A DNA stretch of 64,000 nucleotides from Eubacteriales bacterium (lineage in GTDB: Bacteria > Bacillota > Clostridia > Oscillospirales > CAG-272): positions 81,504-145,503 of the forward strand of contig JAZQBL010000013.1 in assembly GCA_045545665.1 (NCBI GenBank). Reading direction: 5' to 3'. A model generated the notes under the pieces. The model had not been told where the DNA came from. It did no database searches and saw nothing but the letters and a program-made list of their open reading frames with translations. The first letter of the stretch is position 1. Each line of letters opens with the position of its first letter. A program made the translations under genes and the position numbers. This document shows, in pieces, positions 12,565 to 63,207 of the stretch.

Positions 12565-12676
12565 CAATTTATGTCCTGGTAGCTTAAGCAGAGCGTTGAT
12601 TTTCAAAGGTGGCGGTCTGAATCCGTCCGGGGGCAAAAAAAATATTTTTATCCAAATTAAAGCGAGGTAGCAAAAC

Positions 12677-12958: not shown

Positions 12959-13014
12959 TTCTTTACCGTTCCAAACACCTTTTTCAAAATTTTTAATAAA
13001 GATGTTTACAAAAT

Positions 13015-13054
13015 TCGGCAGAGATATTACATCTCTGCCGATTTGTGTTATAAT
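13015..13054 (+). promoter_or_regulatory. 11-bp-arm palindrome plus extended -10 (TGTTATAAT); copy of the RAYT-locus module
   Basis: tcggcagagat-attac-atctctgccga (13015-13041), then TGTTATAAT (13046-13054). 23 + 11 nt identical to 63068-63108 in reverse orientation. Confidence 0.55.
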
Positions 13055-13134
13055 AGGACAGTAAAGATCAACGACTGCCGAAGGTTACCCTTTGAAAGTC
13101 AACAGATATAATTCAACCAAAGGAGATAGCTTAT

Positions 13135-13662
13135 ATGGGAAAAATTCTCGGTTCCTGGAGCGGAATGAGAAAATATCTTGAAGAAGATATGCTTGCACAG
13201 TCATTGCAAGGCAGAATAAGATACGGCTGTACTTCTTACACAGGAATGGATGGATGCCGTTTTTTTGAAGTATGTATTGATAAAAAGCAGGTAAAGCGTT
13301 TCTCCTGGGAGACCGTAAACACGTATTTTATCGACAACGGATACAAAAAAAATTCCTCTCCGTACGGCATAGGTGAGTATTGGGAAGGATTTCATTCTCT
13401 GCTGAAAAAATACCCCGTAAGCGAACGTACGGAATATACCGACGAAGAATTTTGCAACGCCTTGGAAACATACCGTAACCAAGATATTCAAGAAAGCATA
13501 TTTTCGGGCGATCCTATCGTCAGAATGTTTGCAATTCTTGACAGGAGAACAGGAAAAAGAACCCTGCAAAAATTACGACCTTCTATCGAAAACGGTCCCC
13601 AATGGCTGCGTCAATTTTACTTATTAAGATCAAACGCAGAAACCACCCCAGACAGACTTTGA
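13135..13662 (+). CDS. conserved hypothetical protein (SF0329-like family by recollection)
   Basis: 175 aa. FAILDRRTGKRTL and PQWLRQFYLLR resemble the uncharacterised SF0329 family. GGAG RBS. Confidence 0.65.
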   Translation: MGKILGSWSGMRKYLEEDMLAQSLQGRIRYGCTSYTGMDGCRFFEVCIDKKQVKRFSWETVNTYFIDNGYKKNSSPYGIGEYWEGFHSLLKKYPVSERTEYTDEEFCNALETYRNQDIQESIFSGDPIVRMFAILDRRTGKRTLQKLRPSIENGPQWLRQFYLLRSNAETTPDRL

Positions 13663-13719
13663 CTATCTGTTGGGGGTGTGATTTTTATTACAAAAAACTA
13701 CTTTTTATATCTCGTTTTC

Positions 13720-44456: not shown

Positions 44457-44642
44457 GAGGAATACCTCCTTTCTTTTAGTAGTCACCTGTATTATATCAA
44501 AGTGTACCCGTTGCTACAAGCAACGGGTATTAACATTTAGGTTTGCAACTGAAATTAACAGACCATCAAATTCTTATTTATCGTTCTATTTATAGCCGGT
44601 TTAGCCTTTGTATTACAAAGACACGGGGCAAAGCCTGTATTT

Positions 44643-45141
44643 CTATTCTTCTGAGTATAGTTCATCATAGTACCAACGTATAGGATTTTCATATATGTAC
44701 TTCACGATCTCCTCATAGTCCTCTCGACCTCTGATAATATGATCGTGAAAGCCTCGTTGCCATACGTTTTCACCGTATTCTTTATTGCAAAATCTTTTAA
44801 ATGTCGATACAAAATGTGACACAAATGAGGTCTGTTTTGTAGGGGTCGACGTCCTCGGCGACCCGTCATCGCGAACGAATAACAAAAAATGTATATGGTT
44901 CGGCATAATAACGTATTGATCTACGGTTATATTTTAATAAAATTCATTCATTTGTTTTATATGTTTATCCGCAACGATTCCGTGCGGTAATAATTCCATG
45001 TTTTTCTACAATACGGGATAAGATCTGCCGCCTGCCTTCCGTACACAGCGTTATAAAATACGCTCCCGTTGTGTTATAATCAAAATTTTTTAACCTTGTA
45101 GGCTTCCTTTTCGGTAATTCTTTTTCTTTATCCACATTCAT
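44643..45141 (-). pseudogene. RAYT-type (REP-associated, IS200-like HUH/Y1) transposase, disrupted
   Basis: N-terminal part reads MNVDKEKELPKRKPTRLKNFDYNTTGAYFITLCT... The C-terminal part, in another frame, reads ...PHGIVADKHIKQMNEFY*NITVDQYVIMPNHIHFLL...VWQRGFHDHIIRGREDY...YIYENPIRW. Lesions: one frameshift (about 44965-45000) and an in-frame TAA at 44934-44936. Confidence 0.8.
44838..44864 (+). repeat. TGTAG + GC-rich hairpin (REP-like unit) inside the RAYT coding sequence
   Basis: tgtag-gggtcg-acgtcctcgg-cgaccc. Related units at 54196-54221 (opposite orientation) and 62176-62202. Confidence 0.6.
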
Positions 45142-45151
45142 CACCCGTTCT

Positions 45152-45192
45152 ATTGTATCAAAAATCGGCAGAGAAAACAAGTTCTCTGCCGA
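45152..45192 (-). promoter_or_regulatory. RAYT promoter: 11-bp-arm palindrome + extended -10
   Basis: tcggcagagaa-aacaag-ttctctgccga (45165-45192). On the minus strand it is followed by ttttTGATACAAT (45152-45160). Confidence 0.55.
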
Positions 45193-45253
45193 AATTTTAT
45201 GCCCCTGCCATTTCTTCTGTCGAGAATGCAGAAAGAATGAGCGGATTTTTTAT

Positions 45254-48933: not shown

Positions 48934-49197
48934 ACAAAAAAATTCCTGTCCGAAATAGGACAAGAATGACTTCCTGCGGTACCACCTAAATTAACGAAAA
49001 AATTCGTTCCCTCTGCCGTACACCGTTATGTACGCACCCTTTTAACGGTAGGTTACCGTCAGCCATTACTCACGTTAGTTTTCCTGCTGCCCTCATAAGC
49101 CCATTCGTCAACCGTTTCGCTGCGGCATTTCACCACACTGCCGCTCTCTGAAAGCTACGCTGACTGACTACTATTCTTAATCAAAGGTTTCAACTAT
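48934..49197 (-). promoter_or_regulatory. T-box leader, probable Trp (UGG) specifier
   Basis: Minus strand has an AGAGA box, a distal-loop GUGUGGUGAAA, cgaaUGGgcuu (UGG at 49101-49103) and AAUUUAGGUGGUACCGCAGG (48973-48992). Terminator cuuguccu/ggacagga + U7. Confidence 0.85.
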
Positions 49198-62119: not shown

Positions 62120-62175
62120 CAAGATAAAAAAGCAAGAATAAAGCGGACTTCTCATAAGGAAGTTTAATTTCTCCT

Positions 62176-62202
62176 TGTAGGGACAGGCGTCCTCGACTGT
62201 CC
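62176..62202 (+). repeat. REP-like unit (TGTAG + hairpin with a compensated stem)
   Basis: tgtag-ggacag-gcgtcctcga-ctgtcc. Same loop core and flanking TGTAG as 44838-44864, but a different, fully complementary stem. Confidence 0.55.
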
Positions 62203-62239
62203 GTTAAGATATATTTGCGCCGCAGAATACAAAGAGTAT

Positions 62240-62268
62240 CCCGGACAGATTTTCAAGGTCTGTCCGGG
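62240..62268. terminator. hairpin between the convergent MATE gene and the 62.3-kb gene
   Basis: Perfect 10-bp stem cccggacaga / tctgtccggg with a 9-nt loop. Weak T-tracts on both sides. Confidence 0.5.
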
Positions 62269-62300
62269 TTCTCATATCATTAAAAAGCCAAAACACGATA

Positions 62301-62909
62301 TCATTGGTTTGTGTTGATAATATTTGCAATCTCTGATATCAAATGTTCTTTTGAGGTCAACACGCCCTTAACTGCAAATTTCTTTTTGTTAATTATTACA
62401 ATAGTGCAATTCGTCTGAAATTTTAATACAATTCTTTTGGTTTTGTTTCTGCAAACGGCTCGAAATTTTCCATAAAACTTTCCACCGCCTATAAAAATGT
62501 ACCCCGTTACTTCTTTCTTTGTATAACGGGTTAACTGATCGAAAAATTCAGCATAACTACCAAGGAATATATCATGTAATACAGAACAATATACGCTATT
62601 TTTGCAGTAGGTCAAATAGAGAAATTCAATCTTTAAAATAGAGAAATCTGTGATATATGATTGTAACAAAAAGCAAAGGATTGCAATTGGTATAGCAACC
62701 CATAATTCACGTTCAAAGCACATGGGAATCCAACATAACAACAAAATCAAATACTGGAATATAATAAATATTTTGCGTCCAAACTTTGATGTAAGACCTT
62801 GTCCTTTGCGCCACGCTTCTTCACGTTCTTTTTTGCCCCAAATTATCTTGTCAGAAAAAAAGCGATTTGTTCTATTATAGTATTCGATATAAAAATCTTT
62901 TCTTTGCAT
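62301..62909 (-). CDS. hypothetical membrane protein, AT-rich orphan gene
   Basis: 202 aa. AGGAGGA RBS. Two TM helices (IFIIFQYLILLLCWIPMCF and WVAIPIAILCFLLQSYI). No family recognised. Sits directly downstream of the gene-less RAYT-element derivative. Confidence 0.5.
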   Translation of the reverse strand: MQRKDFYIEYYNRTNRFFSDKIIWGKKEREEAWRKGQGLTSKFGRKIFIIFQYLILLLCWIPMCFERELWVAIPIAILCFLLQSYITDFSILKIEFLYLTYCKNSVYCSVLHDIFLGSYAEFFDQLTRYTKKEVTGYIFIGGGKFYGKFRAVCRNKTKRIVLKFQTNCTIVIINKKKFAVKGVLTSKEHLISEIANIINTNQ

Positions 62910-62968
62910 TTTGCAACTATCCTCCTACTGTGTGATGTCTACACTTGGAATTTAATCGCGCAAGTTTC

Positions 62969-63149
62969 GCCTTTGTATTACAAAGGCATAGAGCAAAGCC
63001 CATGCCCCTAAAGCTGTACGAACGCTTCAATAGGCTCCCTCCGGGAGGGAGGCTTTTCGTTAGCCTCATTATAACACAAATCGGCAGAGAAAACAAGTTC
63101 TCTGCCGAAGCTTTCGTGCTACTAATTCTCCGCTAAGAATGCAGAGAAA
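62969..63149 (-). mobile_element. gene-less (MITE-like) derivative of the RAYT element
   Basis: Left block 62969-63000 matches 44604-44635 at 28 of 32 positions. 63078-63109 is identical to 45162-45193 (32 nt). An AGAATGCAGA block lies at both right ends. There is no transposase ORF between the ends. Confidence 0.55.
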
Positions 63150-63207
63150 AAAGGAAAAACTTTTATTCTTGCTTTTTGTTTCAACGCAGCCGTACGGTTG
63201 CGTTTTT

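Follow-up and report, generated by a model that had tools for sequence, protein, structure and literature searches.

Classical RAYTs (REP-associated tyrosine transposases), as described for the REPtron/REPIN systems, are single-copy, vertically inherited genes that move only gene-less REPINs of about 100 bp (Nunvar 2010; Bertels & Rainey 2011; Ton-Hoang 2012; PMC3116915, PMC5581495, PMC6006769). Mobile insertion cassettes (MICs) and MITEs are derived from DDE insertion sequences and make target duplications (PMC3913671, PMC4337579). REPtrons/REPINs and MICs are the closest known concepts to the elements that we describe here. Our literature searches returned papers on RAYTs/REPINs and on MICs, none of which describes the present architecture; the family is widespread in gut Clostridia and apparently undescribed.

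The window, by which we mean the whole analyzed stretch of 64,000 nucleotides (64 kb), contains a locus with a RAYT-like gene at 44.6-45.2 kb. The sequence-only reading took positions 62969-63149 for a gene-less, MITE-like copy of this locus, about 180 bp long, with two shared blocks as its ends. The similarity between the two loci is confirmed. The left block, 62969-63000, matches 44604-44635 at 28 of 32 positions, and the match runs to 37 nt from 62964; the other block, 63078-63109, is identical to 45162-45193 (32/32), and the similarity extends to 47 nt at 89%. In both loci AGAATGCAGA lies downstream of the latter block, and the palindrome CTCCCTCC-G-GGAGGGAG, followed by TTTT, is present at 63033-63053 as had been noticed. 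Neither block match arose in 100 dinucleotide-preserving shuffles of the 64-kb window, and the two loci belong to one repeat family, as proposed; a third, more diverged copy at about 12996-13675 (plus strand) had been overlooked. However, the repeated unit extends beyond the two blocks, by about 820 bp on the left and about 40 bp on the right. The inserted unit is thus neither gene-less nor 180 bp long, but is about 1.0 kb in size and contains an open reading frame (ORF) at 62301-62909. The blocks are internal modules, namely a putative promoter/terminator hairpin and a leader hairpin, and AGAATGCAGA is part of the true right terminal repeat, beyond the shared blocks. We consider that the region is probably the promoter-proximal part (about 180 bp) of a non-autonomous single-gene mobile cassette of about 1.0 kb, which has RAYT-like siblings and for which the loop of a palindrome is the target.

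The unit occupies about 62144-63152. To its left, host DNA forms the left arm of the target palindrome (AAAAAGCAAGAATAAAG, 62127-62143), which is uninterrupted in the empty sites described below. The left terminal inverted repeat (62144-62176, beginning with CGGACTTCTCATAAGGAAGTTT; junction within about 3 nt) is of variant b and matches the type-b end consensus, AAGGGCTGG-TTCTCATAAGGATGTTT, which relatives such as L028, L047 and L109 carry in inverted orientation at each end (loci fetched for comparison are given L numbers). It is followed by a GTAG-type REP hairpin (GTAGGGACAGGCGTCCTCGACTGTCC, 62177-62202, plus strand), which is of the same type as REPs adjoining the ends in L028, L115, L047 and L101; this type is also encoded in frame within RAYT genes of the family. 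Inverted GTAG REPs lie inside both ends in L028, L115 and L047, the window copy has one at a single end, and L034 and L089 have none. Next is a predicted terminator module for the cargo gene (62203-62267, minus strand), with a hairpin at 62241-62267 and then a minus-strand T-rich tail; this module, CCCCGACAGA..TCTGTCGGGG with TTTGTTTTCTGCG, recurs in conserved form at many loci whose cargo genes are unrelated. The cargo ORF itself (62301-62909, minus strand), taken from the ORF list, encodes a protein of 202 aa for which the Pfam scan returned no family. Its DNA is 97.5% identical to that of the cargo of L048, which stands in a different genomic context, and the whole cargo stretch is missing from the empty sites.

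Upstream of the cargo ATG lies a 5' untranslated stretch (62910-62963, minus strand) in which a ribosome-binding site, AGGAGG, can be read, and then the left block, a conserved leader module (62964-63000, minus strand) with the hairpin GCCTTTGTA-T-TACAAAGGC at 62969-62987. The stem of this hairpin shows compensatory changes (GCC..GGC to GCA..TGC). According to the alignment with L048, the next 66 bp (63001-63066, minus strand) look like a collapsed filler with a single G+C-rich hairpin, that at 63033-63053. The putative cassette promoter (63067-63080, minus strand) includes a perfect extended -10 box, TGTTATAAT, at 63068-63076, whose ATTATA is conserved at a fixed position. The main hairpin (63081-63108, identical to 45165-45192) has an 11-bp stem and the loop AACAAG and is terminator-like on the minus strand; its loop gives a weak -35 (TTGTTT, 3/6) 17 nt upstream of the -10. 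Finally, the right terminal inverted repeat (63109-63152, ATTCTCCGCTAAGAATGCAGAGAAAA, which includes AGAATGCAGA; junction within about 3 nt) is of variant a. It is at this repeat that the homology between the near-identical elements L034 and L089, from different species, stops, and the inverted counterpart of the variant-a repeat, GGCGTGCAAAATTAGCGGAGAAAT, is found at the left ends of type-a elements. The remaining loop (GAAAAA) and the right arm of the target palindrome (63153-63177) are host DNA, collinear with the empty sites in L123, L124 and L127.

These empty sites, the finding of which the sequence-only reading had suggested as a check, were reached via proteins near-identical to the neighbouring MATE transporter, on contigs of the window species. 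In L123, L124 and L127, the MATE and SNF genes are about 80 bp apart and an intact 18-bp palindrome, AAAAAGCAAGAATAAAAG-TAAAAA-CTTTTATTCTTGCTTTTT, lies between them. Identity to the window flanks is 98% left and 97% right of the insertion in L123 and L124, and 90% and 88% in L127. In the window, about 1.0 kb of DNA splits the loop of this terminator-like palindrome between the convergent genes, and a 16-nt inverted repeat is left just outside the unit (62127-62142 and 63162-63177). Target features at the junctions, which had also been proposed for inspection, consist of palindrome arms flanking the unit, and no clear target duplication is seen at the window empty/filled site, where junction A-runs leave 1-4 bp (AAG/AAAG) possible. 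Past mobility of the whole unit, and not only of short REPs, had been supposed from the two loci alone; it is borne out by the empty site in near-identical strains, by units 94-98% identical in different species with unrelated flanks, and by RAYT-bearing and RAYT-less copies that are flanked alike. In a metagenome scan, the exact palindrome of the empty site, with up to 30 nt allowed between its arms, was not encountered, and no identical protein was on record for the MATE transporter, the cargo or the melibiase. As a separate observation, the same MATE/SNF intergenic site in a genome of about 77% identity (L128, 4152-4305) holds only a family piece of about 150 bp, made up of the terminator module, a GTAG REP and a type-b end in the orientation opposite to the window; this piece is either a separate insertion or a remnant.

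Insertion at the centres of palindromes is a property of the family. Two related kinds of imperfect inverted repeat, type a (...ATTTCTCCGCTAAGAATGCAGAGAGAA) and type b (...AAACATCCTTATGAGAA-CCAGCCTAA), form the ends. In 27 of 40 testable relatives, 11-21 nt of the 40 nt past the right end recur exactly, in inverted orientation, 700-1650 nt to the left, whereas the direct-repeat control never exceeded 10 nt. The junctions have an A-tract and a stem on one side and a stem and a T-tract on the other, with 0-8 loop-like nt separating them from the terminal repeats; no direct repeats were found at 18 inspected junction pairs. The RAYT-bearing elements L087 (about 1.25 kb) and L088 (about 1.65 kb) have the same type-a ends and the same palindromic flanks.

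Further copies in other genomes, also suggested as a check, are numerous. A scan for the main hairpin stem with the loop left free, using one genome per species, found the exact stem at at least 116 loci, nearly all of them in uncultured Clostridia/Oscillospiraceae bins of many species from the ruminant and human gut. Most of these relatives are metagenome bins, in which mis-assembly at repeats is possible. Among the matches listed, the loop AACAAG is kept in 95 of 116 loci, 95 of 116 have an ATTATA core at a constant spacing from the hairpin, and several bins have 3-4 family copies each. Read on the window minus strand, TTTGTGTTATAATG always comes next after the hairpin. On the minus strand of both window loci, the hairpin plus its T-rich tail is scored as an intrinsic terminator, and in 21 loci a ribosome-binding site and the ATG of a RAYT-like gene follow within about 25 nt of the -10. 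Since the hairpin and the -10 are conserved, the hairpin scores as a terminator and a RAYT start follows, what had been called the right end may be a combined insulator and promoter: the hairpin could stop incoming transcription, and the hairpin together with TGTTATAAT would drive the cargo gene. A scan with consensus promoters did not list this putative promoter. The loop of the main hairpin is inverted relative to its flanks in 4 of the 116 listed loci (L010, L040, L046 and L100); such an inversion would abolish the -35-like TTGTTT and may have arisen by template switching at the palindrome.

The family modules are apparently assembly-breaking repeats. Among independent metagenome contigs of the window species, L117 and L120 break off within the main hairpin or immediately ahead of it, and L121 and L122 begin a short way upstream of the XRE cargo gene.

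A co-oriented ORF nearly always starts 20-85 nt past the left block. These ORFs are diverse; the cargo families among ten proteins scanned include NUDIX, HD, GNAT, nucleotidyltransferase, Cass2, DMP19 and HTH. The second conserved module, the terminator hairpin CCCCGACAGA...TCTGTCGGGG with its T-rich tail, stands behind the cargo ORF, and GTAG REPs are often next to it. In pairwise comparisons, homology extends from the terminator module over the cargo, left block, filler and hairpin to the end repeat and no further. For example, L034 from a sheep colon bin and L089 from a human gut bin are 98% identical over 902 bp, and L028 and L115 are 94% identical over 832 bp, with unrelated flanks on both sides in each pair. 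Thus, whole units have spread across species. L087 and L078 have cargo that is 99% identical but promoter ends that are only 85% identical, with a RAYT gene in one genome and a short filler in the other. The divergence of the promoter ends points to modular recombination rather than simple internal deletion, and the occurrence of the same cargo behind either a RAYT gene or a short filler suggests that the conserved blocks also serve as recombination joints. A plasmid search gave no match, and a phage search gave only partial matches, to unannotated faecal contigs.

The space between the main hairpin and the left block is a slot of variable content. The left block is present in 52 of the fetched loci, at discrete spacings from the hairpin of about 110, 185-226, 400 and 600 nt. 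Among 104 classifiable loci, the slot holds a covarying G+C-rich multi-hairpin segment in 59, a RAYT-like gene in 21, a DUF559 gene in 6, a GTAG REPIN in 4 and other sequence in 14. A DUF559 gene (Vsr-like endonuclease fold) is apparently in the slot of L013, L016, L040, L042, L055, L059, L067 and L114, the assignment being by Pfam for L016 only and by matching 5' sequence or ORF similarity for the others. In its full form, the multi-hairpin segment consists of five hairpins in about 190 nt; compensatory changes affect 14 of its 43 predicted pairs, and concerted evolution is seen among three of its hairpins. The cassette of L048 is 97.5% identical to that of the window over 832 bp but has a full filler of 212 nt, and the alignment of the two fillers shows a gap of about 100 nt between two GGAGGGAG-type hairpins. 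The window filler therefore appears to be a structured segment that has collapsed rather than what is left of a transposase gene. Furthermore, its hairpin sequence is closer to the L052/L035 subtype than to L048, so that recombination between filler subtypes is also likely.

These results bear on the explanation that the stretch is a stand-alone, gene-less, MITE-like copy of the RAYT element, about 180 bp long, derived by internal deletion and bounded by the two blocks. The blocks are indeed shared in the same order and orientation, and the short spacing of about 110 nt recurs in 7 loci. However, the empty sites show an insertion of about 1.0 kb and not 180 bp, near-identical copies are homologous through the cargo to terminal repeats far outside the blocks, and the DNA between the blocks matches the conserved non-coding filler, the roughly 190-nt segment found in most members, rather than RAYT remnants. 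We therefore regard this explanation as very improbable. Membership in the family of the 44.6-45.2 kb element and mobility of the whole unit survive from it; what it says of size and genes, of the role of the blocks and of how the sequence between them arose does not.

The strand on which the filler would act is indicated inconsistently by wobble-versus-mismatch counts, the H3 stem favouring the plus strand and the left-block stem the minus strand. With Rfam 15 (4227 models), neither the region at 62969-63149 nor ten full-filler loci gave a match at the gathering score; matches below threshold to ncr952 (19 bits), the trpB motif (20 bits) and SNORA28 (28 bits) are far under the cutoffs and were dismissed as chance. 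Elsewhere in the window, and unrelated to the cassette, Rfam matches at the gathering level were a T-box leader at 48953-49193 (minus strand, 129 bits) and a borderline tRNA-like match at 12573-12635 (plus strand, 30 bits against a cutoff of 29). Another possible explanation is that the conserved parts form a generic immobile regulatory module (a terminator/promoter with a leader, a regulon operator or a riboswitch-like element) that is kept by selection. The hairpin and the -10 box do resemble expression signals, the covariation of the filler is like that of a structured leader RNA, and the downstream genes are always co-oriented. Nevertheless, strains whose flanks are 97-98% identical differ by the presence of the whole unit, which is 94-98% identical across species between unrelated flanks and has terminal inverted repeats and palindromic flanks; its cargo functions are mutually unrelated and it matches no Rfam family, and we give this explanation very little credence. 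A riboswitch-like leader was rejected as the main explanation, given that the cargo genes have no function in common and that the unit is either there in its entirety or missing.

On one unannotated faecal contig (L129, MT836311.1, positions 290-440), the filler hairpins follow a gene in a circularly permuted order (H3'-H4-H5-linker-H1-H2-H3), enclosed by another terminator-like palindrome (AAAAAGGCTGT...ACAGCCTTCTTTTTT). This permuted copy suggests that the hairpin set may be a small mobile or structured element itself.

The sibling locus (44560-45243, minus strand) has the main hairpin at 45165-45192, a type-a repeat at about 45209-45237, a RAYT-like pseudogene at 44643-45140 and a left block at 44604-44635 with a conserved extension to 44560. 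The product of 44643-45140 (minus strand) matches Pfam PF01797 (Y1_Tnp) with 26.2 bits against a cutoff of 23, and its best NCBIfam match is NF047646 (RAYT) with 72.6 bits, under the cutoff of 80; the RAYT-like proteins of the family score 52-73 bits on this model. The gene is disrupted by a frameshift and an in-frame TAA, so that an enzyme mobilising the cassette would have to be encoded at another place in the genome. Intact RAYT-like ORFs, 169-190 aa long and retaining the HUH motif together with a conserved C-terminal region, are present in nine relatives. RAYT-bearing and RAYT-less copies occur together in several genomes, and at least two loci of the bin E41__bin104 (L022 and L112) have a RAYT 5' end. 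No inverted partner of the right flank of the sibling locus, which would mark the left boundary of the 44.6-kb locus, was found. The third member (12996-13675, plus strand; nhmmer E=2e-10) has a type-b-like end, a variant hairpin at 13016-13042 (TCGGCAGAGAT-ATTACA-TCTCTGCCGA), TGTTATAAT and the conserved terminator, with neither left block nor filler; its cargo ORF (13135-13662, 175 aa) is homologous to the cargo of L074.

Two REP arms are encoded in frame inside RAYT genes of the family, one on each side of the HUH motif. Such arms are found at 44839-44864 in the window, at 3404-3970 in L118 and in the RAYT ORFs of L009, L030, L084, L087, L088, L094 and L103; examples of the encoded peptides are SVGANCVRPQ ... 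GRPQVAPT and VGTGVLDGP ... GPSRTPVPT. Different RAYT alleles have different matched arm pairs at the same two positions, and the arm sequences also occur free as GTAG REPs and REPINs beside cassette ends. In the L118 and L119 strains, whose flanks are 97-98% identical, the promoter hairpin is kept downstream of the YitT gene. Compared with the window sibling locus, the L118 strain has another RAYT allele and other cargo (a membrane protein versus an XRE-type gene); the similarity stops at window position 45041 and returns at 44726-44562.

Read on the minus strand, the cassette consists of a terminal repeat, the 11-bp hairpin with the putative -35 and -10, a short leader, the cargo gene, the predicted terminator, the GTAG REP and the other terminal repeat, with the leader made up of the collapsed filler and the left-block hairpin. 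Autonomous-looking relatives have the same ends, putative promoter and leader modules and a RAYT-like Y1 (HUH) gene in the filler slot, and the 44.6-45.2 kb locus is a decayed example of these. In the mechanism that we propose, the cassette would move as single-stranded DNA by means of a RAYT-like enzyme supplied in trans, for which the paired terminal repeats would be the substrate and single-stranded hairpin loops the target. What suggests such transposition is that targets are not evidently duplicated, that they are hairpins, that the ends have fold-back symmetry and that the largest members contain the RAYT gene; we consider it nearly an even chance. It has to be weighed against the fact that terminal inverted repeats of about 27-40 bp are typical of DDE elements and not of IS200/IS605-type Y1 elements. 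The main rival is accordingly that the cassette is moved in trans by an unseen DDE transposase recognising the 27-40-bp terminal inverted repeats, with the RAYT-like gene a mere passenger like DUF559. This explanation accounts for the clear, if imperfect, terminal inverted repeats and for a slot that accepts unrelated genes or non-coding DNA, and cassettes that have cargo and IS-type ends but no transposase are already known (MICs; PMC3913671, PMC4337579). It is unlikely in our view, as no consistent target duplication was found at the 18 junction pairs or at the window empty/filled sites, no DDE gene was noticed in a non-systematic look at the fetched loci, and duplication-free insertion into hairpin loops suits single-strand HUH chemistry better.

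Several features relate the cassettes, for which we prefer RAYT-like HUH mobilisation, to the RAYT/REPIN systems. The family has a Y1 HUH protein whose best family match is RAYT, with scores below the NF047646 cutoff; GTAG-headed REP hairpins and REP doublets lie beside some of the cassettes; the cassettes are extragenic and adjoin terminators; and their symmetric inverted ends could, like REPINs, fold back in single-stranded DNA. Unlike REPINs, however, the unit is 0.8-1.7 kb long, has its own predicted promoter, a cargo gene and a predicted terminator, and its ends are not simply GTAG REPs. In contrast to classical RAYTs, at least one genome (E41__bin104) has more than one RAYT-start locus, near-identical units occur in different species and REP arms lie in frame inside the RAYT gene. 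RAYT alleles differ between strains with 98% identical flanks, and whole units of 0.8-1.7 kb are polymorphic and common to different species, which does not agree with single-copy, vertical inheritance.

Like MICs (MIC231 of Bacillus cereus and the qnrD MICs; PMC3913671, PMC4337579), the cassettes are non-autonomous, bounded by inverted repeats and carry passenger gene(s) without a transposase, and, as in MICs and MITEs, their ends are common to larger enzyme-encoding siblings. The window unit has the structure of a MIC, with terminal repeats, cargo and ends shared with the RAYT-bearing L087 and L088. In contrast to both MICs and MITEs, there is no evident duplication, the associated enzyme is a Y1 HUH protein and the target is a palindrome loop; the absence of direct repeats at the 18 junction pairs and at the window site does not fit the DDE origin of MICs. 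MITEs are non-coding and shorter than about 600 bp and make a duplication, whereas the window unit, although it has terminal inverted repeats, is about 1.0 kb long with an ORF of 202 aa and no clear duplication.

The cassettes are also similar to IS200/IS605 elements and PATEs in the Y1 transposase of about 150-190 aa, the small size of the element, the absence of target duplication and the hairpins near the ends. IS200 has a terminator-like hairpin and a promoter at the transposase-proximal end, and the cassette family has a terminator-like hairpin and a putative promoter there. However, IS200/IS605 elements lack inverted-repeat ends and insert 3' to a fixed tetra- or pentanucleotide, whereas the cassette ends are inverted repeats, no fixed short target motif is seen, the targets are varied hairpin loops flanked by varied palindrome arms, and the cassettes normally include a cargo gene. 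IS1397/ISKpn1 and group IIC introns prefer insertion in or beside extragenic palindromes or terminator stem-loops, and use a DDE transposase (3-4-bp duplications) or a reverse transcriptase and a ribozyme. The cassettes share the preference for palindromes and terminators, but neither a DDE transposase nor a reverse transcriptase/ribozyme was noticed in the fetched loci.

As for integron cassettes, the family resembles them in its single small promoter-proximal ORFs and in very similar cargo (GNAT, NUDIX, nucleotidyltransferase, Cass2 and HTH), and a reliance on folded single-stranded hairpins, as in integron cassettes, is plausible. The differences are that no arrays are seen, that insertions are dispersed and single, that no attC-type site was recognised and that each cassette has its own predicted promoter and terminator. 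An integron-type array was ruled out, since there is one hairpin module per 8-kb locus.

RAYT is the textbook domesticated single-copy transposase that moves only tiny REPINs. If our interpretation is true, a RAYT-like family with its own promoter, cargo and terminator, polymorphic between strains and common to species of the sheep and the human gut, would blur this picture. To our knowledge, classical integrons are rare or absent in the gut Clostridia group, and the cassettes would be a new route for single-gene cassette traffic in these bacteria. Targeting of terminator loops would be a testable safe-harbour strategy. Recognising the modules also improves annotation, as they break metagenome assemblies and embed REP-coded peptides in ORFs. 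More tentatively, the gut-Clostridia branch of RAYT-like Y1 HUH proteins may be the non-domesticated engine of an active, horizontally spreading transposon family, which would insert promoter-equipped single-gene cassettes with integron-like cargo into terminator-hairpin loops via single-stranded DNA without target duplication, and whose non-autonomous copies would have swapped the transposase for the five-hairpin module of about 190 nt, possibly a functional RNA or single-stranded-DNA element.
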